DNA from: an uncultured Acidobacteriota bacterium
Lineage (GTDB): Bacteria; Acidobacteriota; Vicinamibacteria; Vicinamibacterales; CAVVIG01
Direction of reading: 5' to 3'
Assembly: GCA_963789965.1 (NCBI GenBank)
Contig: CAWBMO010000006.1
Location: 258,651-322,650 of the forward strand
Length of the DNA stretch: 64,000 bases
Shown piece by piece: positions 13,701 through 64,000 of the stretch. The translations under genes were made by a program, and so were the position numbers. Every line of letters begins with the position of its first letter. Within the stretch, counting starts at the first letter, position 1. Under the pieces are notes generated by a model. The model worked only from the letters and a program-made list of their open reading frames with translations, was not told the DNA's origin and searched no databases.

Positions 13701-14815
13701 TGGCGTCGTTCACGCCGCCAGTCAAGACGGTCGCCACGGGTCCGAAGTTGATCGGCCACCGCGGGGATTCCCTGACGAACATGCTCCCGCCGGATTCGGT
13801 GGTGTAGTAGACGCGCAGCGTGTCGGTATCTTCGTTGAGGACGACGATCGGTCGCGTACCGCTGGTGGAAAATGGGTAGATGTTGTCCCACGTGCCACCA
13901 GTGCCGCCAGGCTGCGGATGACGAACGAGCAGGTCGAGTAAGGGTAATTCGCTTGAGGAGTGCCCGACCTTGAGTGAAACGTACAGCGTGCCGTCCGCGG
14001 CAACTGCCAGGTGCATGTGATCGTCGGCCATGCTCATGTTCTCATGGCCCGCCGCCGCCGGCGCTTCATCAGCCGACCACACGGTGGGATCGGCTCCGTC
14101 GACGTGGACTTTGAATCCGAATAGCTGGGTGTTTTCGTTGTACCAGAAGACGCCGATCGTGTTGTTGGGGAGAGCGATGACGGCAGAAATGTCATCGCCG
14201 GTGATGGTCGTGTCTAGGGCGATGGGACCGCTGAACGACCGAATACGGGTAATCGCTGTAGTAGACCTCGATGCTGCGCGTTGGTCTCGGTGGCGAGCCA
14301 CATCCGGCCGGTCGAGTCCACGTCAATCGTGCCGGTTTCGCCCGTGTACACCGATGTCAGAGTCGGTCGCTGGGACCAGAGCTGATACGTGTTGAGGGCG
14401 GGAACGTACTCGATCGACGCCAGCTTCGCGGTCGTGTTGGCGATCAGGATGTGCGTGACATCGCCGATGGTCTTCGCGTCGGCCTGGCCGCTCATCGTCG
14501 ACAGCTGCAGGACGGGAGTCCAGGTATTGTTGGGTTCCAGCCGGTACACCCACTGGCCGGAGCTCATGGCAGCACAGCCCACCAGGTATGGGCGTGGAAC
14601 CAGACTTTCGATTGAGGTTTCTCGCCCGTGGTTTTGTTCGTCGCAATGGAGGGAAGCAGCGTCCACGTCTCTTGGGCGTGGGCAATCTGAACTCCCCCCA
14701 TCCACACGACCAGGGGGAGGAAGAATGTTTGAACGATGAAGAGCAGGCGAGCTCTCCAGGGTGTGCGCGAGGCGCACGTCGACGCGGGGCCAGGCAGGCC
14801 CTCCAATGCGACCAT
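4733..14815 (-). CDS. Giant secreted adhesin-like protein A (~3,360 aa when joined): N-domain, LamG, DUF11-like, 24 Ig-like repeats, 3 DAHF domains
   Basis: Joined from ORFs 14564..14977, 14214..14831, 10768..14301 and 4733..10843 across indels at ~14565, ~14277, ~14240 and ~10890. Colinear with paralog B. LamG motifs LVGYWKMDE and DDVRIYNRALS; ADLSITK...NNSATD (DUF11-like). ATG at 14815 inferred from an upstream sequence matching paralog B. Confidence 0.8.
5270..12590 (-). repeat. Coding tandem repeats of ~258-267 bp (Ig-like units), in blocks of 6, 5 and 13
   Basis: Unit PSITTPPANVTVTAPAAAxFSVVAAGxAPLSYQWRRNG...DSGASFDVVVSN...ATLTVN counted in the translations. Confidence 0.9.
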
Positions 14816-14827
14816 TCCCGCGAAAGA

Positions 14828-14841
14828 GCAACTGGCGTGCC
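14828..14841 (-). promoter_or_regulatory. Putative sigma54 (-24/-12) promoter of protein A
   Basis: Minus strand GGCAC-GCCAG-TTGC (GG-N10-GC), 12 nt before the ATG; same motif at the same distance upstream of paralog B. Confidence 0.65.
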
Positions 14842-14889
14842 CGAAGGCACCTACGATTTCAGTGAGAGTTGCGCGATGCACGGCCGAGA

Positions 14890-14917
14890 ACTCACTCCGC
14901 CGGCAGCCTTTAGTCGG
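14890..14917 (-). promoter_or_regulatory. Conserved 28-bp upstream box, copy 1 (candidate activator site)
   Basis: actcactccgccggcagcctttagtcgg; 26/28 identical to 20701..20728 while flanks diverge. Confidence 0.55.
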
Positions 14918-14978
14918 AACGCGTCGAGGTGGTCCAACGTGGGGCAGACAATTGGCGCCGTGGACGACTGCCTCCACA

Positions 14979-17900: not shown

Positions 17901-20637
17901 CCCAACCGTATACGGTGAGAGTGGCGGCCGCGCTGGTGGCGGTGCCGACGCTATTCGAGACGACGACGTCGAACGACGCGCCGCTGTCCGATACGGCAGT
18001 CGGATTGAGAATGTAGCTGGTGCTCGTCGCGCCGGCGATAGGCGCGCCGTTCCGGCGCCACTGGTACGACAAGGGCGCCGTGCCGGCGGCGACGACGGAG
18101 AAGGAAGCTGGCGCCGGCGTGGGGACCGTCTGGTTCGCGGGCGGCGTGGTGATGCTGGGCGGCACCGGTGCGGCGTTCACCGTGAGTGTGGCGGCCGAAC
18201 TGGTGAGGCTGCCGGCGCTATTAGAAACGACCACGCTGAACTGGGCCCCGTTGTCTCCGACGGCGGTCGGGTTGAGAACGTACGACGAGCTTGTGGCCCC
18301 ACCAATAGGCGCGCCGTTGCGGCGCCACTGGTACGACAAGGGCGCCGTGCCGGTGGCGACCACCGAGAAGGACGCCGCAGCCGGTGCGGTGACCGTCACA
18401 TTCGCGGGTTGTGTCGTGATCTGCGGAGAAGAAGTTCCCTGAATCGTGTCGGTGTCTGTCGCGCTGTTATTGCCCGCGACGGGATCCATCGCATTTGCGG
18501 CCACAACTGTCGCCGTGTTGACGAGTGTGCCGCTTGCGCTGGAAGCCACCGTCGCCTGGAGCATATAGGACACGCTGCCACCCGCCGGCAGGCTCACCAG
18601 ATTGTCCAGGCTGCCGGATCCGCTCGCCGTGCAAGTCGCCCCGCCTGAGGCCGTACACGTCCAGGTCGCTCCGGTCAGTTTGGAGGACAGGACGTCGGAA
18701 ATCGTCGCCACGACATTGGACGGGCCCAGATTGCTCGCCTGGATACTGTAGGTCGTCTGCTGACCCGGCACGACGGATGAAACGGAGTCGCTCTTGGTGA
18801 TGACAAGATCGGCTTGCGGGACGGTGGCCAGTGCCACAATTTCTGATGCGCTCAATGCCCGCCGGTAGATCCGGACTTCGTCCAGGTGCCCGCGAAACCG
18901 CCGGGCGCCGTCGCTCTGCGCGCCAATACCGAGATTGAGCAGATTGGCGGCGATAGATGAAGGGCCGGAGTTCGATTGTTCCTCGACACCGTTGATATAC
19001 ATGCGCATCGTGGTGCCGTCATAAGTGGCCGCCACATGCATCCACGTATTTCCATTGAATGGGTAGTGAGTCAACGAGTCCAGCCGATACGCATTCCCTG
19101 TCGTCGCCTCGTTCAACTGCATGAAGACAGTGCCGGGGCTCGAGGGCGACAGGCCCAGGGTGTAACCGTCGACGCTTCCGAGGATGGCGCGACTGATGAT
19201 GTCCTGGTTGCCTTGCGCACCCGGTTTGATCCAGGCGCTCAGCGTCAGGCCGGTCGTGGCATCGAGATTTGCCTGATCCGACACGAGGCCGTAGCTCGTG
19301 GAGCCATTGAGATTGATGGCCAGTCCCTTGGCGCCGGGCGTCCATGTTGGACTTCCAACCAGGCTTGCATCGTTACCCCAGCCGGACAGGTCTCTGGCTT
19401 TTGTGCCGCCACCCTCTTCCATCTTCCAATACCCGACCAGATCGGGTGTGGTGGTCAACAGCGAGCTGCCTGTTCCCGAATGCGTCGCGAGGACGACGAG
19501 CCTGCCTGCCCACTGATCTTTTGTGCTGCTGGCGTACTCGAATCCGCCGCTGAATATCGCGGTGCGCGGTCCGAAACTGATCACGGACGCGTCAGACTCC
19601 CTGACCCAGACCGTACCTGCCGAGTCGTGGTAGATAACTCGTAAGGTGTGGGTGTCTTCGTTCAACACCACGATCGGTCGTCGACCACTGCCCGACTCGC
19701 TCCCACCGCTGGAGGGGTCGATGGGGTAGAGGGTGTTGTCCCACGTGCCACCGAAGCCGCCGGGTTGTGGGCGGCGGACGAGCAAGTACAGCGCGGGAAT
19801 CGTGCTCGAGGTGCGATTGGATTTCACGACCGCGTAGAGCGTACCGTCGGAGCCCAGCGCCAGGTTGATGTGATCGTCGGCCATGTGCATGCCGGCGTGG
19901 CCCGCATATGCCGGCTCTTCATCGGCCGACCACTGTTCGGGATCGGTTCCGTCTTCGTGGTACCTGAATCCCCACTTCTGGAGTGCCGCATTTCCCCAGA
20001 AGACGCCGATCGAGTGGTTCGGGAACGCCACGATGGAGTTGACATCGCCGAGGCCGGTTTGGTCCGTCAAAATGGTCGGGCCCGTAAAGGACGAGAACGG
20101 GGGATCGCTGTAATAGACGTAGACCCAGTTGAAGTGATCCGTGGCGAGCCACAGCCTGCCGGTCGAATCCACTTCGAGCGTGCCTGTTTCGCCGGCGAAC
20201 ACCGACGTGGGCGTCGGGTTGCCTGGCCAGAGTTGATACGTGTTGAGGGCCGGCACGTACTCGATGGTGACCACTTGCGCACTGCTGCTGACAATCAGGA
20301 TATGCGTCAGGTCTCCAGAGGCTTTCGCGTCAGCTCTTCCCTTGAGCGTCGACACTTTGAGCACCGGAGTCCATGTGTTGTTGGGTTCGAGGCGGAACAC
20401 CCACTGGCCCGAACTTGGCGTATTGGACGGAAGTATCGCCCACCACGTGTGGCCGTGGAACCATGCCTTCGACTGGACCGTCGTTGACGTATCAGACGAC
20501 GTGGGCAGCGTCGGGAGTGTGGTCCATGTGTCCTGCCCGCTGGCAACCTGGACTCCGGCCATCCATACGCCGAAGGTCAGGAAGAGTGTTTGGAAGACAA
20601 GGAGCAGGCGAGACGTCACCGCTGCGCGCGAGAGCAT
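14979..20637 (-). CDS. Large secreted adhesin-like protein B (~1,890 aa when joined): N-domain, LamG, DUF11-like, 7 Ig-like repeats, 3 DAHF domains
   Basis: ORFs 17545..20637 and 14979..17900 join across one extra base at ~17817 (DDVFR/NTNQPNY). Signal peptide ends VASG-QD. Confidence 0.82.
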
Positions 20638-22006: not shown

Positions 22007-22762
22007 ATGGGAGCCTTGATGAAGGATGGCGCGGTGCGGGTATTTCTCCTTGGCGTGCCACGTGTGTTTCGCCAGGGACTGCTCTCGACCCTCGAATGCG
22101 GGGGAGACGTAACCGTTGTAGCCGAAGGCGATACGGTCCAGGAAGTGCAGACCAAACTGATTGGCAGTGGGATTGATGTGTGCGTTGTCGACGCCGATCA
22201 GGAGGACAGTGCGGAACTACTCGATGCGGTGCTGGAGGCGTCCCACACCAGAACGATGAGCGTCATCGTCCTAACCGGACGGCTTGGCCTGCTCGGCCTC
22301 TCTGATGCGCTCGCTCGCGGTGTGTCTGCCGTCGTGCTGACTGATCAAGCCCCCGACGTTCTGCGAGAGGCCATTACAGGAGTACATGCCGGCGAAGGGT
22401 GGCTCAATTGCAACGGAACCGCGAGTGTGCTGAACCAGTTGAGGTCTGCGCGTCGCACCTCACGCGCGGCCAATCGCGCGCGGCGAGAGGCAGTGCTCAC
22501 GAAGAGAGAGCGGGAAATCGTCGCGCTGGTGGGTAGGGGTTGGCGTAATTCGAAAATTGCCCAGTCACTGTACATCAGTGATCTGACCGTCCGAAATCAT
22601 CTCACGTCGATTTTTCGAAAACTCAGCCTCTCGAGTCGAGCGGCACCGGCCGCGTTTCGTCATGGTGTTGCTGTCTTTCCCGCACGGGCGGGCCGGCCGC
22701 TGAAAACGCCGTCGACCGGATCAGAGCGGCTGGAGACGGGCAATCGTGCGGCGCGATCGTAA
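22007..22762 (+). CDS. NarL/LuxR-family response regulator (atypical receiver)
   Basis: Receiver-like N-terminus; LTKREREIV...NSKIAQSLYISDLTVRNHLTSIFRKL HTH. Confidence 0.85.
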   Translation: MGALMKDGAVRVFLLGVPRVFRQGLLSTLECGGDVTVVAEGDTVQEVQTKLIGSGIDVCVVDADQEDSAELLDAVLEASHTRTMSVIVLTGRLGLLGLSDALARGVSAVVLTDQAPDVLREAITGVHAGEGWLNCNGTASVLNQLRSARRTSRAANRARREAVLTKREREIVALVGRGWRNSKIAQSLYISDLTVRNHLTSIFRKLSLSSRAAPAAFRHGVAVFPARAGRPLKTPSTGSERLETGNRAARS

Positions 22763-22875
22763 TCGACTCCGCCAGTTCGGTCTGTTCTGCTGATGACCAG
22801 TGCCATCTGCTGACGTCTAGGACCGCGCGACGAAGACACCTCAACTGTAACTGACGGGGCGAAGCTACGCCTCGA

Positions 22876-23649
22876 ATGCCTTCCTCAATGGAAACTGACT
22901 ATTCCCGTATCGCCGTCTCCGACGTGCGACCCATCCGAGTCCTGATCGTGGGCAACGAGCGGGTGATGCGTGCCGCGCTGCGTGCCCTGATCGACGGCCA
23001 GCCTGGAACACATGTGATCGGCGAGGTCGAGGGTCTCGACACCGCTCTCGCCGTCATCATGTCCGAGCAGCCCGACGTGACGCTCGTCGATCCCGATCAC
23101 AACGGTGGCGCCGACGTCCTCGCAGACCTCATCCGGGCCGCGGCGACGAAGACGCGGATGATCCTGCTGACCGGCTCGCCCGATTCGACGCCGGTGGCAG
23201 ACGCCTTGGGAAACGGCGCGGTCGGATTGGTCCTGAAGCAACAGGCGCCAGAGGTCCTCATCAAGGCGATAGGGAAGGTTCACGACGGCGAGTTGTGGCT
23301 CGACCGCTCGGTAGCCGCCCGCGTGCTCACCGAGCTATCACGAGCCGGTCACGGTGACCGAAGCGATCCCGACCTGGCGAAAGCGGAATCGCTCACGAAG
23401 CGCGAGCGCCAGGTTGTCACGCTTGTCAGTCAGGGGCTGAGGAACACGCAAGTCGCAGAGCGTCTCGGCATCAGCGAGGTCACGGTTCGAAATCATCTCA
23501 CCTCCATTTTCAGGAAACTCGAGGTGACGAATCGTTTTGAGCTGGTCATCCACGCCTTTCGATGCGGGTTGGCTTCGCTGCCGTCGCGCATGGAGCCTGC
23601 GACGCTGCCGGCACCAGACGCCTCCGTTCAACAGAAGAAGATCGCCTGA
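22876..23649 (+). CDS. NarL/LuxR-family response regulator
   Basis: PDVTLVD receiver; LTKRERQVV...ISEVTVRNHLTSIFRKL HTH. Confidence 0.9.
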   Translation: MPSSMETDYSRIAVSDVRPIRVLIVGNERVMRAALRALIDGQPGTHVIGEVEGLDTALAVIMSEQPDVTLVDPDHNGGADVLADLIRAAATKTRMILLTGSPDSTPVADALGNGAVGLVLKQQAPEVLIKAIGKVHDGELWLDRSVAARVLTELSRAGHGDRSDPDLAKAESLTKRERQVVTLVSQGLRNTQVAERLGISEVTVRNHLTSIFRKLEVTNRFELVIHAFRCGLASLPSRMEPATLPAPDASVQQKKIA

Positions 23650-23680
23650 AAAGACCGGCCTCCATCGGTAGGACTTTCAC

Positions 23681-24418
23681 ATGGAACTGGCGACCATCAC
23701 GTCGAGTCCGATCGACAATCCGATTCGGATCGCGCTCATTGGAAGCGAGCGAGTGACCCGCGCCGGGCTGCGCATGTTGATTGACCGCCAGCCTGGGCTC
23801 CGCGTGATCGGCGAAGTCGAGTGCCCGTGCCCTCCGCGCGTGACCTGGGCCGCCGAACCGCCGCAGATCGCCCTGATCGACCTCGATGGGCACGGCAGTC
23901 TGGATTTCGTTCCCGTCCTCCGAGAAGCCGGAAATGCCACGCGGATCATTGTCCTGACCAGCACGCCAGATTCAGCGATGTGCTCGAGTGCCATCCAGCG
24001 TGGGGCTCTGGGCGTTGTGTCGAAGCAGCAGGCTCCGGAGGTCCTCGTCAAAGCGATTCACAAAGTCCACGCCGGCGAGGTGTGGCTCGAACGCGTCAGG
24101 CTGGCGCGCGTGCTCCGCGACCTGATCGGTGCGGTCGCCGCCGCAAGGCGCCAGCGTGAGATCGGTACGAGCGTCACTCTCACTGAGCGCGAACGCCAGG
24201 TCGTCACCCTGGTCGCGCAGCGCTTCCGCAACAGCGAGATCGCGGCCAGCCTCTTCGTCAGTGAGGCGACGGTTCGAAACGGCCTCGCATCGATCTTCAG
24301 GAAACTGGGCCTGTCGAGTCGGGTTCACTTGATGATCTACGCGTTCCGGGAAGGGTTCGTCAACCTGTCGACCTCCGGCCGGCCGCTCAATAAGCAACTT
24401 CAGCGTGTTGAGTCCTGA
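23681..24418 (+). CDS. NarL/LuxR-family response regulator
   Basis: ALIDLD receiver; LTERERQVV...NSEIAASLFVSEATVRN HTH. Confidence 0.88.
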   Translation: MELATITSSPIDNPIRIALIGSERVTRAGLRMLIDRQPGLRVIGEVECPCPPRVTWAAEPPQIALIDLDGHGSLDFVPVLREAGNATRIIVLTSTPDSAMCSSAIQRGALGVVSKQQAPEVLVKAIHKVHAGEVWLERVRLARVLRDLIGAVAAARRQREIGTSVTLTERERQVVTLVAQRFRNSEIAASLFVSEATVRNGLASIFRKLGLSSRVHLMIYAFREGFVNLSTSGRPLNKQLQRVES

Positions 24419-39304: not shown

Positions 39305-40449
39305 ATGGATCGCGTTTACCTGTCGCCGCCGCACGTTGGTGCGGAAGAGCGTCGCCTGCTGCTCGAGGCGTTCGATTCGAACTGGATCGCGCCGATTGGC
39401 CCACACCTGGACCGATTCGAGCTGGAATTCGCCGACCGTCTGCAGTTGCCCGCGGCCGTCGCGCTGTCGAGCGGGACCGCTGCTCTCCATCTGGCCCTCC
39501 ACATCGTCGGGGTCACGAGGCACGACGAGGTGTCTGACGTCGACGCTCACCTTTGCCGCCACGGCGAACGCCATCACGTATCTGAATGCTCGACCCGTTT
39601 TCCTGGACTCCACGCCGTCAACTTGGACGATGGACCCAGGTCTGCTGCAGGAGGAGCTGGAGGACTGCGCGCGGCGCGGTCGGTTACCGAAGGCGGTGAT
39701 GGCTGTCGATCTCTACGGACAGTGTGCCGACTACGACAAGATCGTCGCCGCCTGCAGGAGGTACGAGGTTCCGCTCATCGTTGATGCATCGGAGGCGCTC
39801 GGAGCCACTTACAAAGGAGAACAGGCGGGTCGCTTCGGGGAAATGGCCGCCTTCTCGTTCAACGGAAACAAGATCATCACCAGCGGCGGCGGGGGCATGC
39901 TCGTGTCGAGGCGCGTCGATTGGATGCGGCGCGCACGGTACCTCGCGACTCAAGCCCGGGATCCGGCGCCGCATTACGAGCATTCGGAAATCGGCTTCAA
40001 CTACCGCATGAGCAACTTGCTGGCCGCTGTCGGCCTGGGTCAGCTTCGCAATCTCGACCTGCGTCTCGCCCAGCGGCGGGCAAACAACGACTACTACCGC
40101 CGTCAATTTGCACGCCTGCCGTGGCATCGAGGTCATGCCCGAAGCGCCATACGGGCGCAGCAACTGCTGGCTCACGTGCATCACCGTGGACCCCAATCGC
40201 TTCGGAGCGAGCCGTGAGGACCTGAGACAACATCTCGAGCTGGTCAACATCGAGTCTCGCCCCGTCTGGAAGCCGATGCACCTTCAGCCGGCCTTCGCCG
40301 GTTGTCGAGTGCGCGGCGGCGCGGTGGCCGCGAAGCTCTTCGAGCGCGGTCTTTGCCTGCCGAGCGGATCAAGCCTCACTCAGAGGGACCGCGGGCGCGT
40401 CGTGGACGCCATCGAATCGTGGGGTGAATGGGGCGAAATCACGGCATGA
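39305..40449 (+). CDS. DegT/DnrJ-family sugar aminotransferase (PglE-like), indels at ~39533 and ~40120
   Basis: YLSPPH, SNWIAP, SSGTAALHLAL, FSFNGNKIIT (PLP Lys), RPVWKPMH, GLCLPSG across three frames. Confidence 0.9.
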
Positions 40450-47534: not shown

Positions 47535-49341
47535 TTGTTAAGCACAAGCAGACCTTTAGCCTTGGCAAGAAGGAAGCCGGAAGCGTTGACGGCAGAGTTC
47601 GCCCTTCGAGTTGTCACTGAGGGAGAGGTTCTTGCCTTACTCAAACAAGTGGAATTCGTCTCAGCCTGGCACAACCTGGCGAACGTAGACAAGAAGTTCA
47701 CGGCAATTCAAGAACTTCCCTTTGTTGCCACCTGGTACAGAGTGTACTTTGAGCAGTACGCACCGATCCTCTGTTTGGCCTACGGCCAATCCAACGATCT
47801 GCTCGGGTTGATGCCGCTCGCGCAGCATCGGACGACGGGTGCAATCAGCCATGCTGGCGCTGGCCAGGCAGAATATCACGGCTGGATTTCGGTTCCAGAA
47901 ATTGAAGACGAGTTTCCGACAGCCTGTGTTATCGAGATCGGGCGACGTCTTCGACCGGCCGTCTGGCACTGGCGATGGCTTCCTCCCGGAGCGTCAACGC
48001 GCTGGCTCTCGTCCGAGGCGCTTGAACGAGTTGGCATCCATGTCAGATCAATCAAGCGACCAAATTGGGTGATCGATCTGCAAGATGATGAACATCTTTG
48101 CCGGATACGACAAAGATCATCGCTTAAGAACAACATTAACAAACACAAACGCACGGCTCATTTTGGTCTTGAACGAATCACCGATAAAGCTGCCACCTGC
48201 AGACTGATGGATTCTATTGCTGCCCAGTACCGATCTTCGAGCCACCGCCGTCTACGGGAGCTCAGGCTTCAGGGGAGACAAACACAAAGCGAGTTTTTTT
48301 ATAGAGCGGCAAAACTATCCGGCGGTACATCACTACTCTGTTCTGTGGTCGAATCATCATGTTCTGGCCTTTAACTTCGGAGCCTGCGATCGCAGCAGAG
48401 TGCTGCTCGGGCTATTCGCCTTCAATCCGGTCGAGGCTCGCACTTCGCCTGGAAGAATTCTCATCGTTGAATTGGCCAGGAAACTGAAGGCAGAGGGATT
48501 TCGTTATCTCGACCTCACTCCAGGGCGCCAGCTGTTTAAGGAACAATTGGCGAACAGCCACGAGGAGCTAGTCTTACCAACGTTTTACTTCTCTAAACGA
48601 GCCAGGCTTATCGCTGACTTGAAAGAGTCGACGAACACACTGGCGAAGCGCGTCCTCAGATGGGTGCGCATAGATGATCCGCACAAGAGGCAGCAGTTTG
48701 TCGATCAACTCATTGGGTTGCGCGTGAAGCTAAAACGCACGACTCCAGGGTCGGTGTGTCGTCGGCTTGCCCGAATGATCTATAGGCGGGCTGAGTATCT
48801 CTATTATGGAATCGACTGTTCAACGACGCGAGAGGATCAAGACGCACCGCAAGATTCGGAGATAGGAATTCAACGGTACGCGGACCTCTTGGCCTGTGTG
48901 GATTCAAGTCCTCGCTTGGCCAACGCGGAATTCTTGGAGCGCAGCCTCCGACGTTTCAACGCCGGTGACGTTCTATATTCGATCACGAAGAGTGGTGTGC
49001 TTGCTCATCATGGCTGGTTACAAAAGACACAGGAGGCGTCCTCGTCCGAATACTCGATGAAACTCCTGGGTCCAAAGGGCAGTGTCACGCTCGACGATTT
49101 CTACACGGTGCCGTCCTTTCGAAGGCAAGGTTTGTTTACCCGCACTCTCCAACAGATCATCCGCGATTGTGGAAAGTCCGGCGTGCCAAATGTGCTCATT
49201 GCCGTCGACAGAAACAATTGGCAAGCGAGAAATGTGATTGAGAACGTCGGTTTTTCAGTATTCCGCGGTTATAGACGAACCCAATTTCTACAATGGGTCT
49301 GGGAAAAAAGTTTTGGTCCCGAGACTGGCCCCCTCACCTAG
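47535..49341 (+). CDS. CelD/BcsL-type GNAT protein with extra C-terminal GNAT domain, indel at ~48231
   Basis: LLGLMPL...AEYHGW; SPGRILI...YLDLTPG...KEQLAN; C-terminal DFYTVPSFRRQGLF...NVIENVGF. Start may be TTG 47586. Confidence 0.72.
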
Positions 49342-51402: not shown

Positions 51403-52578
51403 TTGACATCGCCTCAGCGCCTCTTTCATCTTCAACGGGTGTGCCTCAACTGGACCGCGTCTTATTTCAAGCGCCGGTTCAGGAAGGCACAAACACCTGT
51501 GCATGTTCTTTTTTGCACGACCGATCATTACGAACCCGGCACCGACAATGCGACGGCAGATTTGGAAAGAGAACGGGTTGAGGCTCTGCTGGCACGGTAT
51601 CCAGCCTTAGCAGATAGACACGAAGACGCAGCGGGCAATGTGCCCAAAAGAACCTGGTTCTTTCCACCCCACTATCACCGAAACGGTTCTTTGAAAAAAC
51701 TCGTGTCGCTCTGTGAGCGCGGTTACGGCGAGATAGAGCTGCATCTTCATCACGGAAAAAAGAAGCCAGATACGGCGGAGAACCTGCGCCGAACGCTCGA
51801 CCTGTGCGTCAAAGAGTATTCCCATTTTGGGATTTTCGGATCTGAGTCAGGACGGAAGCGCTACGCCTTCATTCACGGCGATTGGGCCCTTGACAACTCC
51901 AGAGGGGGCAAATATTGCGGCGTCGACAACGAACTGACCATCCTAAAAGAAACCGGTTGCTATGCCGACTTCACCTTTCCATCGCTGACCGAGGCCGATC
52001 CCCTACAAATGAATTCCGTATTTTACGCAAAAGACGTTCCAGAGAAAGCAAAGAGTCATAACACTGGTGCTCTGGTGCAACGCGGCGGCCATGAAAGTGA
52101 CGACCTGGTGATGATTCAGGGACCGGTATATCCCTTTGTCATGGATGCGCAGGCTGTCAAAAAGACATGTTTTAGAGTGAGAGCACTCGGTGATTCAATC
52201 AACACGAAATATAGAACGACGACGAAGAGAATAGATGCCTGGGTGAGAACGGGGATACATGTGTCTGGTAAACCCAATTGGATCATCGTAAAGACGTCAA
52301 CACACGGAGCCACCGATGCAGAGGCGGTCTTAGGGCCAGAGATGGAGCACATTTTCAGCTATTTCGAACAGCAGTACAACGATGGTGTCAATTGTGTGCT
52401 GCACTACGTGACGGCCAGAGAGCTGTACAACATGGTCAAGGCCATTGAAGCCGGAGAGTCGTGCGATGATCCTGAGGAGTACAGAAATTATAGGATCAAA
52501 CCTCCTATCTACAATGATCAGGCCCCTTACTTGGAGGCCTCTAGCGAGCTGACAAGTTTGGTTGACAATACTTACTAG
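51403..52578 (+). CDS. Hypothetical protein, His/Asp-rich, possible metal-dependent carbohydrate esterase fold
   Basis: 391-aa intact ORF; DHYEP, EIELHLHH, FIHGDWALDNS, GCYADFTFP, HYVTARE. Confidence 0.65.
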   Translation: MTSPQRLFHLQRVCLNWTASYFKRRFRKAQTPVHVLFCTTDHYEPGTDNATADLERERVEALLARYPALADRHEDAAGNVPKRTWFFPPHYHRNGSLKKLVSLCERGYGEIELHLHHGKKKPDTAENLRRTLDLCVKEYSHFGIFGSESGRKRYAFIHGDWALDNSRGGKYCGVDNELTILKETGCYADFTFPSLTEADPLQMNSVFYAKDVPEKAKSHNTGALVQRGGHESDDLVMIQGPVYPFVMDAQAVKKTCFRVRALGDSINTKYRTTTKRIDAWVRTGIHVSGKPNWIIVKTSTHGATDAEAVLGPEMEHIFSYFEQQYNDGVNCVLHYVTARELYNMVKAIEAGESCDDPEEYRNYRIKPPIYNDQAPYLEASSELTSLVDNTY

Positions 52579-55730: not shown

Positions 55731-58700
55731 GTGAGTACCGATAATCCGCGACTAGCGGCGTTGGTCGACTGCGAACCGCAGGAGCCGATCGCTCGTGTGC
55801 CGACCGGCAAATACGTGTTCGAGCAGCATGCGAGGGAGGAAGGTCGGGGCCACACCCTTCCGCTCTCGTTCGCACAGCAACGCCTCTGGCTCCTCGACCA
55901 GTTGGAGCCAGGCCTGGCGGTTTACAACATTGCGAGAGCGTTCCGCATAACCGGTGCGCTCGACGTCAGCGCTCTGGAGCGGGCCTTCAACGAGATCGTC
56001 CGACGGCACGAGGCGTTGCGGACGACTTTCGCCGCGGCCGGAGGACAGCCGGTTCAAGTCATCGCTCCTCATGTCGAGATACCGCTCCCGATCGTCAGCC
56101 TTCGAGAAGGCAAGGATGGGGAAGCGCAGGCGCGGCAGATCGCCTCCGAGGAGGTACGCCGGCCTTTCGACCTCGCGCGTGGCCCGCTCATGCGCGCTGT
56201 GCTCCTGCGCCTGACCGACGGCGCGCACATTCTCCTCCTCACCATCCACCATATTGTGTCCGATGGCTGGTCGATGAGCGTCTTCTTCGAGGAGATGGCG
56301 CAGTGCTACTCGGCGTTCACCGCAAGCCGCTCGTCTGCTCTGTCCGAACTGCCCATTCAATATGCCGACTTCGCGAGCTCACAGCGTGAACAGCTGCAAG
56401 GCGCGAAGTTGGACGGCCTCGTGTCTTACTGGAAGGAGCGGTTGAAGGATCTCCCAGCGAGACTCGAGCTCCCTGGCGATCGCCCGCGTCCGCAGATCGG
56501 AACTTATGGCGGGGCAACGCACACGTTCACGTTCGACCGAAGACTAACTTCAGATCTGAAAGCGTTCAGCCGACGGGAGAGTGTCACGCTGTTCATGACA
56601 CTGCTCGCCGGGTTTCAGACGCTGCTGTACCGCTGGGCCGGGGTCGAAGACGTCGTCGTCGGCGCGCCGATTGCTGGCCGCCCATCGGTCGAAACCGAGC
56701 GCCTGATAGGATTCTTCGTCAACACACTCGTCCTGCGCACTTCGCTCGTTGGGGATCCGACGGTGCGTGAGCTGCTGGCCCGCGTGCGGGAAACCGCGCT
56801 TGGCGCATACGTCCATCAGGATCTTCCCTTCGAGCATTTGGTCGAGCTGCTGCGGCCAGAAAGAAGTCGGACCCAGACGCCACTGTTCCAGGTGATGTTC
56901 GTGCTGCAGAATGTCCCTCGACGGGAATTCACCCTTCCAGGTCTGACTCTCACCTCCGAGCACGTTGATACCGGTACGGCCAAATTCGACCTGACCGTGG
57001 CCCTGGCTGAAACGCCGGAGGGACTGACCGGACGAATCGAATACAACACTGATATCTTCGAGGTCCGCACGATCGAGCGACTGGAAAGACACTTTCTGGC
57101 CCTCCTGGCGGGAATGGTTGACGGCCCAGAGCGTCGCGTCTCGACACTAGAGCTCCTGACGCCGGGAGAGCGGCGCGAGCTTCTGTTCGACTGGAACGAC
57201 ACGGCCACCGAGTACCCAAGAGAGTCGTGCCTGCACCAGCTATTCGAGCGGCAGGTGGAACGAGCGCCGGGCGCCGTGGCGGTCGTCGACGGCGGACAGG
57301 CCTTGACCTATTGCGAGCTGAACAGAGGTGCGAACCAGTTGGCGCACCGACTGCAGGCTGTGGGCGTGGGCCCAGGCAGTCTCGTGGCGATCTGCGTCGA
57401 TCGATCGGCCTCCCTCATCGTCGGGCTCCTGGCGATTCTCAAAGCCGGCGGCGGCTACGTGCCGCTTGATCCCCGTTACCCGCGGGAGCGTCTCACTCTA
57501 ATGATGGCAGACGCACGCGTACGCGTGCTCCTGACGGACACCCGCCTCAGCGACTGTCTGCCGGTGCCAGATGGCGTACTGAGACTCCTGCTCGATCAGA
57601 TGGACGACGGATCGAACGAGCGCGACGGAGATCCCCTCAGTCTGGTGACCGCCGAAGACGCCGCATGCGTCATATACACGTCCGGATCGACCGGCCGCCC
57701 CAAAGGCGTCGTTGTCCCGCACCGGGCCGTCACGCGGCTGGTGATCAACACAAACTACATCAGCCTGCACTCCTCTGATGTTGTTGCCCAGGCGGCAAGC
57801 GCCTCGTTTGATGCGGCCACCTTCGAAATCTGGGGAGCTTTGCTGCACGGCGCGCGGCTTGTGCTCATTCCGGAGCACGTCGTCATTTCGCCGACGGATC
57901 TTGCCACCGAGCTGGCCCGCACGCGGATTACGGTTCTTTTCCTCACGACAGCCGTGTTTAACATGGTCGGCCGTGAATGCCCCACGGCCTTCAACACGCT
58001 CACAGATCTGCTCGTCGGCGGCGAAGTCATCGACCCCACATCGGCCGCGGCGGTGTTGACAAACGGTGGCCCGCAACGGTTACTCAACGTCTACGGGCCG
58101 ACTGAAACCACCACGTTCGCCTCGTGGCACCAGATCACCGAGGCTCCAGACGGTGAACGCCCCGTTCCGATCGGGCGGCCACTGGCCAACACACGGCTGT
58201 ACGTACTGGATCGCCATCTCCAGCCGGTACCAATTGGCACGCCCGGAGAGATCTATATCGGCGGCGATGCCCTCTCGAGTGGTTATCTGAACGACCCTGA
58301 TCTCACCTCCCAGCGGTTTATTAGCGACCCATTTAGCACCGCACTGGCTGCGCGTTTGTACAAAACCGGCGACATGGGACGGTTTCTTGCAAATGGCAAC
58401 ATCGAGTTCTTGGGACGCCGCGACCATCAGATCAAGATTCGGGGCTTTCGCGTCGAGCCCGGTGAGATTCAGAGCACTCTTGATGCCAGTCCGCTGGTTC
58501 GCGAAAGCCTGGTGGTTGCCCGGGAAGATCGTTCAGGGAATAGACGCCTGGTCGCCTACATCGTGCCAGCGAAAGCTCATTCAGAACTGATCGTCAAGCT
58601 CCGGGCGTTTGCGCGCGAAAGACTTCCGGAGCACATGGTTCCCTCTGCGTGGGTCCTGCTGGAGCATCTGCCGCTCACCATCAACGGCAAGCTGGACCGG

Positions 58701-59816
58701 GCAGCGCTGCCCGCGCCGGATGGGGCATTCGTCACTGTCACTCCCGATCGGCCGCCTCGCGATGCTCTGGAGCTGAATCTCACGAACCTCTGGGAAGACC
58801 TTCTCGGGCAGCATCCTATCGGCATGTCGGCCAACTTCTTCGAGCTGGGAGGCCACTCGCTGCTCGCGGCTCGCTTGTGTGCGTCAATTGAGCAGGCCTT
58901 TGGGACGAAGCTTCCTCTTGCCACGTTTTTCCAGGCGGCAACGATCGAGCAGCAGGCCGAACTGCTCCGACGTGAAAGCAAAGACGAGGTGTGGCCTTCA
59001 TTAGTGCCGATCCGCGCCGGCAGGGGCAAACCCCCGTTGTTTTGTGTTCACGGTGTAGGTGGCAACATCCTGACCTATCGGGACCTCGCGCGATACTTGC
59101 CGTCAGATCAGCCGGTGTATTGTCTTCAGGCCTGCGGTCTCGACGGCAAGGCCCCGATCCACAGGCGAATCGAAGACATGGCGGGCCACTACGTAGCGCA
59201 GGCCCGGCAGGTGCAGCCTCATGGGCCGTACGCAATCGCAGGCATGTCTTTCGGCGGCGTCGTGGCATTCGAAATGGCTCGCCAGCTCGAGGAGCAGGGA
59301 CAACGGGTTGCCTTACTCGCGTTGTTCGACTCGCGGGCGCCCAAGCTGCAGACCTGGCTTCGGCGCAAGGCGTCTGAGTACGGATTACGAGCTTCTTTTC
59401 ACGCGAGGCATCTCGTATCGGGACCGGACCGCCGACGTTACATTTTCAGCGAGCTGAGAACGATACAGCGTCGGTTCGCGAATCGATTCTGGCAGATGGG
59501 TTTCCGTTGGCACGGGGCCGGACGTTCGCTGCCTCGCGCCCTGGAGGATGTCCGGCACGTCAACACGAACGCACTGAGCAGGTATCGGCCGCAAGCGTAC
59601 CGGGGCCGTGTCACGCTCTTCAGAGCCAGTGAGCGCTCCGCCGAGGCGACGAGCGATCCAGGGAAGGGGTGGGGCCCGTTGGCTATGGGCGGTGTCGAGA
59701 TCTTAGACGTGCCCGGTGGCCACCGCAGCCTGGTCTTGGAGCCTCACGTGAGAACACTTGCCAGAGAGCTCGCGCGTTGTCTCGACAAAGCATGGGAGCG
59801 AGAGAGTATCGAATGA
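55731..59816 (+). CDS. Single-module NRPS, C-A-PCP-TE
   Basis: C: LSFAQQRLW, HHIVSDG. A: YTSGSTGRPKG, NVYGPTE, YKTGD, NGKLDR. PCP: FFELGGHSL. TE: GMSFG, PGGH. Confidence 0.96.
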   Translation: MSTDNPRLAALVDCEPQEPIARVPTGKYVFEQHAREEGRGHTLPLSFAQQRLWLLDQLEPGLAVYNIARAFRITGALDVSALERAFNEIVRRHEALRTTFAAAGGQPVQVIAPHVEIPLPIVSLREGKDGEAQARQIASEEVRRPFDLARGPLMRAVLLRLTDGAHILLLTIHHIVSDGWSMSVFFEEMAQCYSAFTASRSSALSELPIQYADFASSQREQLQGAKLDGLVSYWKERLKDLPARLELPGDRPRPQIGTYGGATHTFTFDRRLTSDLKAFSRRESVTLFMTLLAGFQTLLYRWAGVEDVVVGAPIAGRPSVETERLIGFFVNTLVLRTSLVGDPTVRELLARVRETALGAYVHQDLPFEHLVELLRPERSRTQTPLFQVMFVLQNVPRREFTLPGLTLTSEHVDTGTAKFDLTVALAETPEGLTGRIEYNTDIFEVRTIERLERHFLALLAGMVDGPERRVSTLELLTPGERRELLFDWNDTATEYPRESCLHQLFERQVERAPGAVAVVDGGQALTYCELNRGANQLAHRLQAVGVGPGSLVAICVDRSASLIVGLLAILKAGGGYVPLDPRYPRERLTLMMADARVRVLLTDTRLSDCLPVPDGVLRLLLDQMDDGSNERDGDPLSLVTAEDAACVIYTSGSTGRPKGVVVPHRAVTRLVINTNYISLHSSDVVAQAASASFDAATFEIWGALLHGARLVLIPEHVVISPTDLATELARTRITVLFLTTAVFNMVGRECPTAFNTLTDLLVGGEVIDPTSAAAVLTNGGPQRLLNVYGPTETTTFASWHQITEAPDGERPVPIGRPLANTRLYVLDRHLQPVPIGTPGEIYIGGDALSSGYLNDPDLTSQRFISDPFSTALAARLYKTGDMGRFLANGNIEFLGRRDHQIKIRGFRVEPGEIQSTLDASPLVRESLVVAREDRSGNRRLVAYIVPAKAHSELIVKLRAFARERLPEHMVPSAWVLLEHLPLTINGKLDRAALPAPDGAFVTVTPDRPPRDALELNLTNLWEDLLGQHPIGMSANFFELGGHSLLAARLCASIEQAFGTKLPLATFFQAATIEQQAELLRRESKDEVWPSLVPIRAGRGKPPLFCVHGVGGNILTYRDLARYLPSDQPVYCLQACGLDGKAPIHRRIEDMAGHYVAQARQVQPHGPYAIAGMSFGGVVAFEMARQLEEQGQRVALLALFDSRAPKLQTWLRRKASEYGLRASFHARHLVSGPDRRRYIFSELRTIQRRFANRFWQMGFRWHGAGRSLPRALEDVRHVNTNALSRYRPQAYRGRVTLFRASERSAEATSDPGKGWGPLAMGGVEILDVPGGHRSLVLEPHVRTLARELARCLDKAWERESIE

Positions 59817-60523
59817 GGCTCGCGCCGGATGAGGTTCACATTTGGTATCGGCTGACCGAATCACTTGGGGATTCCGCCCTCGCCGCAGCCCGATCGGTAC
59901 TGTCTTCTGAGGAGTGGTCGCGACACGACAGGTTGCAGTTTGCTCACGATCGGCGTGACTACGCGGCTGCCCACGCGCTGCTCCGGACCTCGCTCTCCCG
60001 CTACGCGGACGTCGCTGCTCACGCGTGGACGTTCGACCTGGACGCACACGGGAAGCCAAAGCTGTCGGATCGGTGTGAAGCGGGTTTGGCGCTGACGTTC
60101 AGTCTGTCACATGCACGAGGGATCGTGGCATGCGCCATCGCTCCCGGTCCGGACATTGGAGTCGACGTCGAGCGTACCGATCCCGCCGTCGATTGGTCAC
60201 CTGTTATCGAGCGATATTTCACCCGTGCTGAACTCGTGCAACTCGATCGCTGTCGTCCGTCAGAGCGTGCAGGTCGCTTCGCTATGTTGTGGACGCTGAA
60301 GGAAGCGCACGTCAAGGCAACTGGGCTGGGTCTTTCGGAGTCATTGGCCAATATCGGATTCGATGTGAACGGCGATCGGATTCGCTTCCTCCCGCCGGCG
60401 AATATCAACGCCGAAGCGTGGCAGTTTGCGTCGTTTGCGCCGGCACCGCCCTACTGGATCGGCGCCGCGATCGCACGTCGTAGCATTGAAATGTGGAAGG
60501 TCACCTCGTATTTGGAGTCCTGA
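59813..60523 (+). CDS. 4'-phosphopantetheinyl transferase (Sfp type)
   Basis: HGKP, FSLSH, IGVDVE, WTLKEA; ATGA overlap with the NRPS stop. Confidence 0.93.
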   Translation: MRLAPDEVHIWYRLTESLGDSALAAARSVLSSEEWSRHDRLQFAHDRRDYAAAHALLRTSLSRYADVAAHAWTFDLDAHGKPKLSDRCEAGLALTFSLSHARGIVACAIAPGPDIGVDVERTDPAVDWSPVIERYFTRAELVQLDRCRPSERAGRFAMLWTLKEAHVKATGLGLSESLANIGFDVNGDRIRFLPPANINAEAWQFASFAPAPPYWIGAAIARRSIEMWKVTSYLES

Positions 60524-60524
60524 T

Positions 60525-62396
60525 ATGAACGGAGCTACGCACCTTCCAGCGCAAAGCATCGCCCAACGGCTTGACGACCAGGCACGCCTCACGCCTGAGG
60601 CGTTCGCGATTCTCGCCCTCAACCAGGCACCGCTGGCCTATGAACACCTGTACGCCCATATTCAAGAAGCCGTCCTGACACTGCGCTCACTCGGCATAGA
60701 GCGCAATGACCCGGTTGCAATCAACCTACCCAACGGGCCCGAGATGGCCGTGGCTTTCCTTGGAGTCGCGAGTGGAGCCACTGCTGCTCCTCTGAACCCA
60801 GCCTATCGCGCCCCGGAACTTGAGGCTTGTCTCATCGACATGCAAGCCAAGGCGTTGATCGTACAGGCCGGTGTTGATTCACCGGCAAGGGCTGTTGCCC
60901 GGGCGCGCGGTATCCCTATACTTGAGCTTTATTCGCGACCAGGCACCAGAGCGAGTCTATTCACGTTCACCGGGGAACGGCCGGTGGGCCTGAAGCATCC
61001 CGAGTTTGCCCGGGCCGACGATGTGGCCCTGCTCTTGTCTACTTCTGGCACCACCTCTCGGCCGAAGCTGGTGCCCCTGACCCATACCAATCTTCTTCAA
61101 TCCGCACGGAACATTCAGACGACGCTCGCGCTCACGCAGAGCGACCGTTGCCTCAACGTGATGCCGCTCTTTCATATTCACGGTCTCGTTGGTGCGTTGC
61201 TTTCCTCGCTTGCAGCGGGAGCCAGCGTGGTCTGCACGCCTGATCTTCAGCTCCCGCAATTCTTTGCGTGGCTTGAAGAATTTTCACCGACTTGGTACAC
61301 CGGCGTCCCAACCATGCATCGGGCGGTTCTGTCATCTGCGCGGGCTCAAGGTCTGGATTTGCGACGTACCCGTTCGCTGAGGTTCATCCGCTCGTCATCT
61401 GCGCCCTTGCCGCGACACGTGATGCGTGAGCTGGAACAAGCCTTTGATGTTCCCGTGCTCGAGGCCTACGGAATGACTGAGGCTTCCCATCAGATATGCA
61501 GCAATCCTCCGCCACCGCAGTTGCGGAAGGAAGGCTCGGTGGGCTTGGCCGCCGGAACAGAGGTCTCTATCATGGACGGCCACGGCGACCTCCGGGCTTC
61601 CGGAGAAGTCGGGGAGGTCGTGATTCGCGGCGCCAATGTTATGTCGGGATATGCCGCCAATCCTGGCGCAAATGAACGTTCCTTCTCTCACGGCTGGTTC
61701 AGGACAGGCGATCAAGGCTACCTGGACAACGATGGCTACCTGTTCATCGTCGGAAGGCTCAAGGAAATCATCAACCGCGGCGGGGAAAAGATCTCGCCCT
61801 CTGAAGTCGACCAGGTCCTGCTGGATCACCCAGCGATCGCGGAAGCCACTGCCTTCGCCGTCACGCATGCAACGCTTGGCGAAGATGTTGCCGCTGCGGT
61901 CGTCTTGAAAACAGAATCGCATACCAACGAACAGGAACTTCAAGCCTTTGTCACCGCCCGGCTCGCAGAATGCAAGGTTCCTCGCCGGATCATCATCGTC
62001 GATCACATTCCACGAGGGGTCACCGGCAAGGTTCAGCGCGCTGGTTTGGCAGAAGTATTTGCGGAAGCACTCCGAGTGGACCTTGTGGCCCCGACGAATG
62101 CCTTCGAGGCAGCCGTGGCGAGCATCTACAGCGAAGTATTGGGCATCCCCACAGTCGGTCGCGATGACAACTTCTTCCTGCTCGGAGGTGACTCGCTGCG
62201 TGGTACCCAAGTACTCTCACGCGTCCGTGCGGTTTTTCAAGTCAACCTTTCCATCGCGACGATCTTCCGAAAATCGACCGTGGCGGGTCTCGCGGACGAA
62301 ATCGCCCAGTCCCTCGAAGTGTCCGACGGCGTTGAGGCAACCGATCATGCCTGTTCTCTCCCCGGATTGCCTGACTCGTCTTACCGGCCCGCGTGA
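60525..62396 (+). CDS. Acyl-AMP ligase of oxalate-CoA ligase (AAE3)/Fum10-like type fused to a carrier protein
   Basis: AAPLNPAY, TSGTTSRPK, MPLFHIHGL, WYTGVPTMH, LRFIRSSSAPL, EAYGMTEASHQ, INRGGEKISP; C-terminal FFLLGGDSL PCP. Confidence 0.88.
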   Translation: MNGATHLPAQSIAQRLDDQARLTPEAFAILALNQAPLAYEHLYAHIQEAVLTLRSLGIERNDPVAINLPNGPEMAVAFLGVASGATAAPLNPAYRAPELEACLIDMQAKALIVQAGVDSPARAVARARGIPILELYSRPGTRASLFTFTGERPVGLKHPEFARADDVALLLSTSGTTSRPKLVPLTHTNLLQSARNIQTTLALTQSDRCLNVMPLFHIHGLVGALLSSLAAGASVVCTPDLQLPQFFAWLEEFSPTWYTGVPTMHRAVLSSARAQGLDLRRTRSLRFIRSSSAPLPRHVMRELEQAFDVPVLEAYGMTEASHQICSNPPPPQLRKEGSVGLAAGTEVSIMDGHGDLRASGEVGEVVIRGANVMSGYAANPGANERSFSHGWFRTGDQGYLDNDGYLFIVGRLKEIINRGGEKISPSEVDQVLLDHPAIAEATAFAVTHATLGEDVAAAVVLKTESHTNEQELQAFVTARLAECKVPRRIIIVDHIPRGVTGKVQRAGLAEVFAEALRVDLVAPTNAFEAAVASIYSEVLGIPTVGRDDNFFLLGGDSLRGTQVLSRVRAVFQVNLSIATIFRKSTVAGLADEIAQSLEVSDGVEATDHACSLPGLPDSSYRPA

Positions 62397-63793
62397 ACGC
62401 ATCATCCCATGGAAGAATAGACGACGGATTGGCTCCGTTGTCTCCTGCTCAACAACGACTGTGGTTGCTCGCTCAGTCGAAACCGAGCAGCCCTGTTTAC
62501 AACGTCTACAGGGCTTGGCATTTGAGTGGCGGTCTCAATGTTGAAGCTTTGCAGAGGTCGATCGACACAATCGTGGCACGCCATGCCGTGTTGCGTTCAA
62601 CCTTCGAGGTCGTGGACGGACATCCGATTCAGGTAGCCGCGCCGGCCTTGAGCATTCAGGTGCCAGTCGTTGACCTTCGACTGTGCTCGGCAGCCGAGCA
62701 GCACGCAGCAAGTGAGCGGATTGCACTGAGGGAGGCAAAGCGGCCCTTCGACCTGACCGAAGGGCCATTGTTTCGAGCGACACTGTTGCGCTTAGGTGAC
62801 AACGAGCACGTCCTCCTTCTCAGTTCGCACCACATCGTGATGGATGGCTGGTCGATGGGAGTGTTCAATCGAGAATTAGCGGCGCTCTATGGCGCCTTTA
62901 TTGTCAACAGGTCGTCCCCACTGCCTGATTTGCCGATGCAGTATCGCGACTACGCCCTTTGGCAGCGTGAGCAATCACAGCGCGACATGCTGGGATCACA
63001 ACTTCGCTACTGGAAGGCGCAGCTCGCAGGTTTGACTGCACTGGCGTTGCCGGCGGACAGGTTGCGGCCACCGGCAAGGAGTTACAAAGGTGCTCGCGAA
63101 ACCTTCCAGGTGTCAGCGGAGGCCGCGACGCAACTCAAGGTCCTTGGCCAACAGCATGGCGCCACGCTGTTCATGACCCTGTTGGCAGCGGTTAACGTCC
63201 TGTTCCACCGCTGCACGGGGCAGAGCGACATCGTTGTCGGCTCTCCCGTGGCCAATCGCACCACGCCAGAGCTCGAGCCCATGATTGGACTGGTTGTTAA
63301 CGCCTTGGTACTGCGAACCGATATGTCTGGCAACCCCACATTCCGCGAAGTGATGGCGAGAGTGCGCGAAGTGTGCCTGGGAGCCTACGCCCATCAGGAC
63401 GTGCCGTTCGAAAAGCTGGTTGAGGAAATGCAACTGACGCCAGACACGCGCCACAATCCGCTGTTCCAAGTGGCATTCACATTACACAATACTCCTGATC
63501 AGGCTCCGACGCTGACCGGCATGAGGACGACTCCATTCGCGACCGGCAGCGTCAGTCCATTTGACAGAGGCAATGACACCGCCAAGTTTGATCTGACTGT
63601 TTCCATGATCGAGACTGGTGGCGTGATCAAGGGTCTCTTGGAGTACAGCACGGATCTGTTTGACCGCGCGACTATTCAGCGGATGGCCGGTCACTTTCGG
63701 ACCTTGCTGCACAGCATTGCAGCCAACCCGGCTCAGCGACTCGCGGATTTTACGCCGTTGACGGAGACCATTGTGGGCACTCATGACACCTGA
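62393..63793 (+). CDS. Stand-alone NRPS condensation domain
   Basis: LSPAQQRLW, RHAVLRSTF, HHIVMDG, HQDVPFE, AKFDL; ends right after the C domain. Confidence 0.92.
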   Translation: MNASSHGRIDDGLAPLSPAQQRLWLLAQSKPSSPVYNVYRAWHLSGGLNVEALQRSIDTIVARHAVLRSTFEVVDGHPIQVAAPALSIQVPVVDLRLCSAAEQHAASERIALREAKRPFDLTEGPLFRATLLRLGDNEHVLLLSSHHIVMDGWSMGVFNRELAALYGAFIVNRSSPLPDLPMQYRDYALWQREQSQRDMLGSQLRYWKAQLAGLTALALPADRLRPPARSYKGARETFQVSAEAATQLKVLGQQHGATLFMTLLAAVNVLFHRCTGQSDIVVGSPVANRTTPELEPMIGLVVNALVLRTDMSGNPTFREVMARVREVCLGAYAHQDVPFEKLVEEMQLTPDTRHNPLFQVAFTLHNTPDQAPTLTGMRTTPFATGSVSPFDRGNDTAKFDLTVSMIETGGVIKGLLEYSTDLFDRATIQRMAGHFRTLLHSIAANPAQRLADFTPLTETIVGTHDT

Positions 63794-64000
63794 TTTCCCG
63801 CCCGGGAACCGTATGACCGACAGTGCCGACCGTACCGGCGCACTCTTGCCGGCGAACCCTGATTTGCTGAGGCCCGAGCTCGTACGAGAGGTGATCGATG
63901 GTCACGCATTGGTCGCGCGCTGCCTGAAGGAGCTGGGCGTTACGCATGTATATGGCGTGTCGGGAACGCCCGTTCGCGAAACGTTCGCCTCTTGCTTTCA
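63783..64000 (+). CDS. ThDP-dependent enzyme N-terminus (Oxc / 2-hydroxyacyl-CoA lyase-like), partial
   Basis: Not in the ORF track. Manual translation from ATG 63783: MTPDFPPGNRMTD...EVIDGHALVARCLKELGVTHVYGVSGTPVRETFASCF, open to the window end; resembles the TPP_enzyme_N start. Confidence 0.7.
   Translation, partial: MTPDFPPGNRMTDSADRTGALLPANPDLLRPELVREVIDGHALVARCLKELGVTHVYGVSGTPVRETFASCF

Follow-up and report, generated by a model that had tools for sequence, protein, structure and literature searches.

Formylation (F) domains of nonribosomal peptide synthetases (NRPSs), such as that of linear gramicidin LgrA, use N10-formyl-tetrahydrofolate as donor, and transketolase-like glycolyl loaders of NRPS and polyketide synthase (PKS) lines are thiamine diphosphate (ThDP) enzymes that load a carrier from a ketose. 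Oxalate-driven one-carbon (C1) extension has so far been an engineered cascade of OXS and variants of oxalyl-CoA decarboxylase (OXC) (PMC7154664, PMC8411744). Here we describe a five-gene cluster at the end of a 64,000-nucleotide stretch from an uncultured Acidobacteriota bacterium (GCA_963789965.1, contig CAWBMO010000006.1, positions 258,651 to 322,650; hereafter the window). In this cluster, an oxalate-CoA-ligase-type enzyme fused to a carrier domain is encoded together with an NRPS and a ThDP enzyme that has glutamine in place of the catalytic glutamate. We regard it as probable that the cluster exemplifies a widespread, undescribed NRPS initiation module with oxalate as the one-carbon source, in which a ThDP family from the HACL/OXC stem, altered from Glu to Gln and from CoA to carrier, generates either a formyl or a 2-hydroxyacyl thioester directly on the line; in the present locus, the product may decorate a capsule glycan with N-acyl-Ile/Val. 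The starter cassette, built from known enzyme families and a derived ThDP clade, is real and conserved and, it appears, undescribed. A full-text literature survey covering few of the subscription journals found no account of an oxalyl- or oxalate-ligase NRPS starter cassette, and none of the papers listed by a broader search mentions oxalyl-CoA decarboxylase; an earlier description may exist.

The five genes lie on the same strand, with ends that overlap or abut:

55731..59816, plus strand: single-module NRPS with condensation, adenylation, thiolation and thioesterase domains (C-A-T-TE), 1361 aa; assigned by Pfam, with the HHxxxDG motif of the C domain, the carrier serine and the TE motifs all present

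59813..60523, plus strand: Sfp-type 4'-phosphopantetheinyl transferase (PPTase); Pfam ACPS and AASDHPPT_N; start overlaps the NRPS stop

60525..62396, plus strand: oxalate-CoA-ligase (AAE3/OCS)-type adenylation enzyme with carrier domain (P0001), 623 aa

62393..63793, plus strand: stand-alone condensation (C) domain, 466 aa; HHxxxDG intact; start overlaps the ligase stop

63783..64000, plus strand: 5' part of the Gln-type ThDP enzyme (P0002, 578 aa in full); start overlaps the C-domain stop

P0001 carries the Pfam domains AMP-binding (residues 17-376), AMP-binding_C (427-502) and PP-binding (530-592) in one open reading frame (ORF). An earlier note, made from the sequence alone, had assigned the ligase from three motifs, which we located at 61164 (PLFHIHG), 61380 (RFIRSSSAPL) and 61467 (YGMTEASHQ). 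It had also given the ligase its own carrier, and the PP-binding domain bears this out: the carrier serine, Ser557, lies in a GGDS motif with its codon at 62193. Oxalyl-CoA synthetases take the first three places among the solved relatives of P0001 (6qjz, 5ie0 and 8aff; E values 1e-114, 3e-114 and 3e-106), followed by NRPS modules and other CoA ligases, the latter from 3e-59. Ser289, His319 and Lys500 of AtAAE3 contact oxalate, and the serine and histidine are specific to oxalyl-CoA synthetases (PMC8905533). They align to S292, H322 and K502 of P0001, which are kept in 117, 116 and 120 of 120 sequences (the query and its 119 best homologues), and the carrier domain (PF00550) was matched in 119 of the 120 ligase homologues listed. 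Ligase fold and oxalate pocket are thus like those of the oxalyl-CoA synthetases (AtAAE3 5IE0-5IE3, LsOCS 6QJZ, yeast Pcs60 8AFF). Those enzymes, however, have two domains and CoA as acceptor, whereas P0001 is fused to a carrier and neighbours C domains, an NRPS and a PPTase. Judged by these residues and relatives, oxalate is likely the true substrate of the ligase.

The ThDP gene is the second gene after the ligase, with the stand-alone C domain in between. The earlier note had seen about 70 residues of this gene and likened its start to Oxc/HACL. That start is the ATG at 63783, with DGHAL at 63897 and 72 codons inside the window; the ORF is intact, with no stop until window-equivalent position 65519 (G000:C6:324169, where G000 is the source genome). 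P0002 has the three-domain ThDP fold, the GD...NN cofactor motif and the FQ motif. Among solved structures it is closest to HACL/S (2e-107), next to OXC (1e-78 to 3e-73) and after that to acetolactate synthases (AHAS; 2e-52), and its AlphaFold model (pLDDT 93) is nearest in fold to HACL/S (TM 0.88). Among the 25 curated NCBIfam models shown, P0002 falls below every cut-off. It scores 339 bits against OXC model TIGR03254 (cut-off 739), 370 against NF006721 (557), 299 against AHAS model TIGR00118 (538) and 224 against glyoxylate carboligase (GCL) model NF008431 (791); the best model, NF004516, is labelled acetolactate synthase and gives 403 bits for a cut-off of 587.

Trees place the enzyme more precisely. 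A midpoint-rooted FastTree of 142 rows (130 near-full-length rows plus 12 references or homologues, with 21 short or interrupted representatives left out) put the 38 Gln rows on a single branch with support 100, one Gly row among them. The HACL/S-OXC group forms the sister of this Gln clade, AHAS and GCL lie elsewhere in the tree, and a midpoint-rooted quick IQ-TREE of 26 rows recovered the branch too. P0002 therefore does not group with acetolactate synthases, and the trees and sub-cut-off AHAS scores together rule that assignment out. The reading of the gene as Oxc fared less well: it belongs to the OXC/HACL side of the family, but lies outside the OXC clade, its catalytic Glu is replaced by Gln and the protonation residues are missing. 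Relative to HACL/S (6XN8, 8VZA-8VZK), P0002 shares the best sequence and fold match, the FQ motif and a mostly kept R260-type Arg; it differs in its sister-clade position, in having Gln for Glu, in missing R400 as well as most of the C-terminal covering peptide, and in its biosynthetic context. OXC, the decarboxylase of CoA-dependent oxalate catabolism, comes from the same side of the family, but P0002 has Gln84 and a short tail, and neither the R400-type CoA Arg nor the Y/E/Y residues of OXC are present in it. We found no second OXC/HACL-type or oxalate-ligase gene in G000, whose completeness is 76.5% (other matches, 23-31% identity).

Position 84 of P0002 is Gln and aligns to E54 of E. coli OXC, E60 of IlvB and V51 of GCL; the positions of Q84, R247, R310 and Y575 in P0002 rest on alignments. 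The codon lies 32 bases past the window end. Gln occupies this site in 120/120 close sequences (the query and 119 matches of 61-83% identity), which rules out sequencing error as its origin. Among 150 representatives clustered at 50%, 43 have Gln at the site, 93 have Glu and 2 have another residue, while 12 do not cover it. The Gln-clade representatives comprise the 43 with Gln and one with Gly, and both Gln codons are in use. Across 3000 decarboxylase-superfamily sequences, the site was Glu in 94% and Val in 3% (PMC3534367), and in HACL/S the glutamate (Glu50, bonded to N1' of ThDP) is critical for cofactor activation (PMC11271303). Glyoxylate carboligases have been called unique in lacking it (bioRxiv 2021.03.21.436335). 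GCL (Val51) and the Gln clade are alike as natural ThDP families without the canonical glutamate, but GCL has Val rather than Gln, groups with AHAS in the trees and uses free glyoxylate. A second such family, if real, would allow a direct test of cofactor activation. The cofactor motif itself is retained, with D473 in 34/35 and N500 in 33/35 Gln representatives and both in 120/120 close homologues. We also considered E66 as a replacement acid and rejected it: it is present in 118/120 close homologues yet in 13/35 of the wider clade, and hence is no clade feature.

Other changes fall where acyl-CoA is bound. In ApbHACS, R260, R400 and a C-terminal peptide contact acyl-CoA (PMC11271303). By alignment mapping, R260 corresponds to R288 in P0002 (Arg in 22/35 Gln rows) and R400 to Q428, where Arg is found in 2/35 Gln rows against 18/18 HACL/OXC-like rows. 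The Gln clade has gained two arginines, R247 (33/35) and R310 (34/35), and its tail after D570 is mostly 8-9 residues long, compared with mostly 14-21. From these losses and gains we infer that a carrier protein has taken the place of CoA, and the ThDP enzyme is likely to act on a carrier-bound group. When the carrier (518-600) was modelled in complex with the ThDP enzyme (36-578), the score was 0.00, which has no bearing either way.

Genomic neighbourhoods connect the two proteins. With the ThDP enzyme as sole query, a search of metagenomes returned ten loci, one of them a 31-residue non-match. A ligase-carrier gene lies directly upstream in eight of the other nine, and the ninth begins inside the ThDP gene; three of the eight pairs are near-identical, so about six are distinct. 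Wherever downstream DNA was available (6/6 loci), a C domain came next after the ThDP gene. When genomes were searched with the ligase instead, 80 loci were kept, comprising 11 close ligases and 69 distant NRPS A domains. Ten of the 11 have the carrier, and in three of these ten a ThDP gene follows that is Gln-type and 34-36% identical to P0002. Counting both searches, the Gln-type gene comes after a ligase-carrier gene in 11/11 other loci with upstream DNA. The dependence looks one-way: ligase-carriers occur without the ThDP gene, and a Gln-type ThDP gene without a ligase-carrier was not seen in these 11 loci. As an indirect sign of co-occurrence, 11 of 119 ThDP homologues match a ligase homologue in the exact size of the longest contig, against 0-3 for ten offsets. 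As a control, five of five Glu-type sister genes in genomes (profile search) had no oxalate-ligase-carrier within ~9 kb.

Fusion proteins tell a similar story. Chains combining ligase, carrier motif and ThDP enzyme are Gln-type in 8/8 cases, with R247, R310 and Q428, and span ~5 lineages at 35-50% mutual identity; Glu-type ligase-ThDP fusions are without a carrier motif in 6/6. Since kin are not independent, the pairing and fusion numbers are counts and not a test. With the oxalate-type pocket and the carrier fusion, this functional link between ligase and ThDP enzyme (co-occurrence, fusions) gives partial support to the carrier-tethered oxalyl-to-formyl route proposed in the earlier note; an Oxc identity of the ThDP enzyme is not supported.

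Related architectures were also observed. P0325, P0348, P0420, P0418, P0419 and P0377 fuse a carrier-less oxalate-CoA ligase to a Glu-type OXC/HACL, a one-chain oxalate catabolic enzyme; three of these carrier-less fusions are named from green algae (Chlorokybus, Closterium). Ligase-carrier-TE and ligase-carrier-hexapeptide-acyltransferase fusions occur at L011:9869-12625 and L005:6927-9851 and in P0158 and P0204. One of these fusions lies among wzm/wzt and glycosyltransferase genes where no ThDP gene is present, which points to a possible oxalyl decoration of glycans. In locus L003, a carrier-less close relative adjoins a PanE-type reductase gene, and ligase-carrier locus L006 has an ICL/PEP-mutase-family lyase gene, a C-A-T-TE and a PPTase; the L006 lyase would be a plausible oxalate source. 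At L130:9093-17661 (G996:C8), a Glu-type sister ThDP gene is oriented divergently to the genes for a PanE-type reductase and a C-A-T-TE protein, with no oxalate-ligase-carrier.

The C-A-T-TE upstream of the ligase probably provides the acceptor. Its A domain has, by motif position, the pocket code DAFFLGVTFK, which is listed for Ile/Val-activating cyanopeptolin modules (PMC2533009), so the module (55731-59816) would present Ile or Val. The same code recurs in the C-A-T-TE directly after the ThDP gene of locus L083 and, for L008 and L009, in the second and final modules, and differs in other loci; with this code in common, the window cluster resembles an L083-type cluster whose genes have been reordered. 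An extra upstream A-T-TE gene of L083 has an unusual, non-amino-acid-type pocket. The stand-alone C domain of the window ends at the point where a C-A linker would start, and the two C domains of this cluster were the only ones found in G000. In L084 (5611-6957), L086 and L089, Pro replaces the first His of HHxxxDG in the C domain that follows the ThDP gene, and the module ends without a TE.

These components suggest a route from oxalyl-S-carrier through ThDP-dependent decarboxylation to formyl-S-carrier and on to N-formyl-Ile/Val, which we put forward tentatively. The five overlapping genes would form a starter-and-transfer unit. The ligase would adenylate oxalate and load its own carrier domain, and the Gln-type ThDP enzyme would decarboxylate the tethered oxalyl to a formyl thioester, the carbanion presumably being protonated and not added to a carbonyl. 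One C domain, whichever of the two it may be, would join formyl to the Ile or Val on the C-A-T-TE, and the thioesterase would free the N-formyl-Ile/Val or hand it to a sugar of the capsule-type locus. Loci L011 and L013 are two further ligase-carrier loci adjoining wzm/wzt genes, and transfer of the product to a glycan is possible. The predicted end product, an N-formyl amino acid, is the same as for F domains of the LgrA kind; this operon has no formyltransferase domain (Pfam), and two PF00551 matches in G000 lie elsewhere. As in the transketolase-like glycolyl loaders, a ThDP enzyme would shape a carrier-bound unit of two carbons or fewer, but here it belongs to another ThDP family and the carrier would be loaded by a ligase. 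Folate-independent formylation, or C1 extension, would then join NRPS starter chemistry, and a natural carrier-tethered version, including the single-chain ligase-carrier-ThDP fusions, would be a ready scaffold for C1 biocatalysis.

The formyl route has to be weighed chiefly against decarboxylative carboligation on the carrier, a somewhat unlikely course in our estimation, by which the carbanion would add to a common aldehyde or keto compound and give a 2-hydroxyacyl starter such as glycolyl or lactyl. In OXC, the carbanion left after CO2 release is protonated via waters held by Y134, E135, Y497 and S568 (PMC8411744, PMC7154664). The first three (MeOXC numbering) are F147, Q148 and S504 in P0002, the S568 region aligns to its short tail, and the Y497 position is non-Tyr in at least 33/35 Gln representatives. 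F147, Q148 and the missing Tyr mirror the changes that make MeOXC a carboligase, the nearest solved relatives and fold are HACL/S synthases, and GCL, the sole previously described family without the Glu, is itself a carboligase. The extra A-T-TE of L083 could supply the acceptor; in the present locus, a similar gene has left relics downstream. Yet no aldehyde-forming partner is conserved among the loci read, the loop alignment at 503-505 is gapped, and the conserved C-terminal Tyr575 (119/120 close homologues) might stand in for the OXC Tyr. OXC variants without the protonation residues shift to carboligation but still decarboxylate at 0.2-1.3 per second (PMC7154664, PMC8411744). The compact clusters L007 and L008 (ligase-carrier, ThDP, NRPS, PPTase) have no aldehyde-making gene among the ORFs read, and we favour formyl on these two grounds. 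Little catalytic speed would be needed for a substrate tethered to a slow assembly line.

Several observations weigh against the formyl route, and some of them suit other explanations. F147, Q148 and S504 argue against a plain OXC, and human HACL, with Phe/Gln at those sites, decarboxylates oxalyl-CoA at <1 per minute (PMC8411744, PMC7154664). With the catalytic Glu replaced, activity itself is unproven, and G000 yielded no ICL/PEP-mutase-family gene as an oxalate source. Moreover, 7/10 ligase-carrier loci from the ligase search, L006 among them, have no ThDP gene nearby, and unmodified use of oxalyl seems feasible; in the six of these seven genomes that were searched, a Gln-type gene was not among the matches listed, the best being Glu-type or other. 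P0333 (872 aa, partial) is a Gln-type ligase fusion with no carrier motif seen. Ligase-carrier loci without a ThDP gene, like the loss of the Glu, would fit transfer of oxalyl unchanged to give N-oxalyl-Ile/Val, with the Gln-type protein as a slow or non-catalytic partner that binds, protects or proofreads the carrier. We hold this to be improbable, as the ThDP cofactor motif is retained across the Gln clade and the site is filled by Gln with both codons, and not by random decay, in clusters <50% identical. Still less probable is another small acid or another ThDP chemistry, such as loading of glyoxylate or oxidation of the adduct to a carbonyl donor for a ureido or carbamoyl link. LsOCS does take glyoxylate, at ~1/61 of its oxalate efficiency (PMC8905533), oxo-ThDP adducts appear as side products in HACL/S crystals (PMC11271303), and the Gln clade has many further active-site changes (S108, N421, C447); the ligase pocket nevertheless equals that of oxalate enzymes residue for residue, and the loci read share no conserved redox partner. 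The local copy also bears on the case. Its gene order, with C between ligase and ThDP and the acceptor module upstream, is unlike that of all other loci seen, broken NRPS pieces lie downstream of the ThDP gene, and in a C-domain tree (no labelled starter-C references) the C domains after the ThDP gene are not one clade. The cassette could thus be real as a family while this copy is a shuffled, decaying island whose product is no longer made, with the stand-alone C ending at the C-A linker, deleted A-T-TE, TctB and GT2 fragments 2-5 kb downstream, and no Gln-type gene at the set thresholds in relatives from the phylum or class. To this we give little credence, as all five ORFs are open, catalytic motifs are kept and starts overlap or abut stops.

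In the genome samples, 3-5 candidates were scored per genome, so that misses are possible. No Gln-type locus was found in 400 own-phylum genomes (query P0002, E 1e-150), 300 own-class genomes (profile, 1e-140) or 301 genomes of one cyanobacterial phylum sample (1e-120). In 251 gammaproteobacterial-order and 301 planctomycete-phylum genomes, there were, besides the centre genome G670, five matches, all Glu-type, and the best match of a plasmid search was 36% identical and Glu-type. Three small-share DNA sequencing runs gave short pieces alone, none crossing a gene junction by 31 bases.

The cluster belongs to an extended polysaccharide locus that includes PglD/DegT-type genes. Within the window, this large capsule or exopolysaccharide (EPS) locus spans 24405-55610 and has Wza/Wzc-type export plus Wzm/Wzt, many glycosyltransferases, GNATs, a pyruvyl transferase and methyltransferases; a 391-aa ORF in it (51403-52578) is without a Pfam match. 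GC at 46-56 kb of the window is 0.51-0.59, compared with 0.636 for the contig. A DegT-type aminotransferase (39336-40449) and a GNAT-type gene (47535-49341) are each apparently split across two overlapping frames, by frameshift or assembly error. About 2.5-4 kb past the ThDP gene (L001:8691-9135 and 9851-10186, G000:C6) lie remnants of an A-T-TE gene that has suffered deletions and is out of order. They show 31-40% identity to L083:5083-7926 and, in short parts, up to 61-67% identity to the window NRPS; they are fused in frame to a TctB-like piece and adjoin a GT2 fragment, so that this edge of the island is decaying. Three tandem LuxR-family regulator genes (22007-24418) stand immediately ahead of the capsule locus. 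On the minus strand at 4733-20637, four neighbouring long ORFs with Ig-like, laminin-G and DUF11 repeats possibly represent one giant surface protein split by frameshifts.

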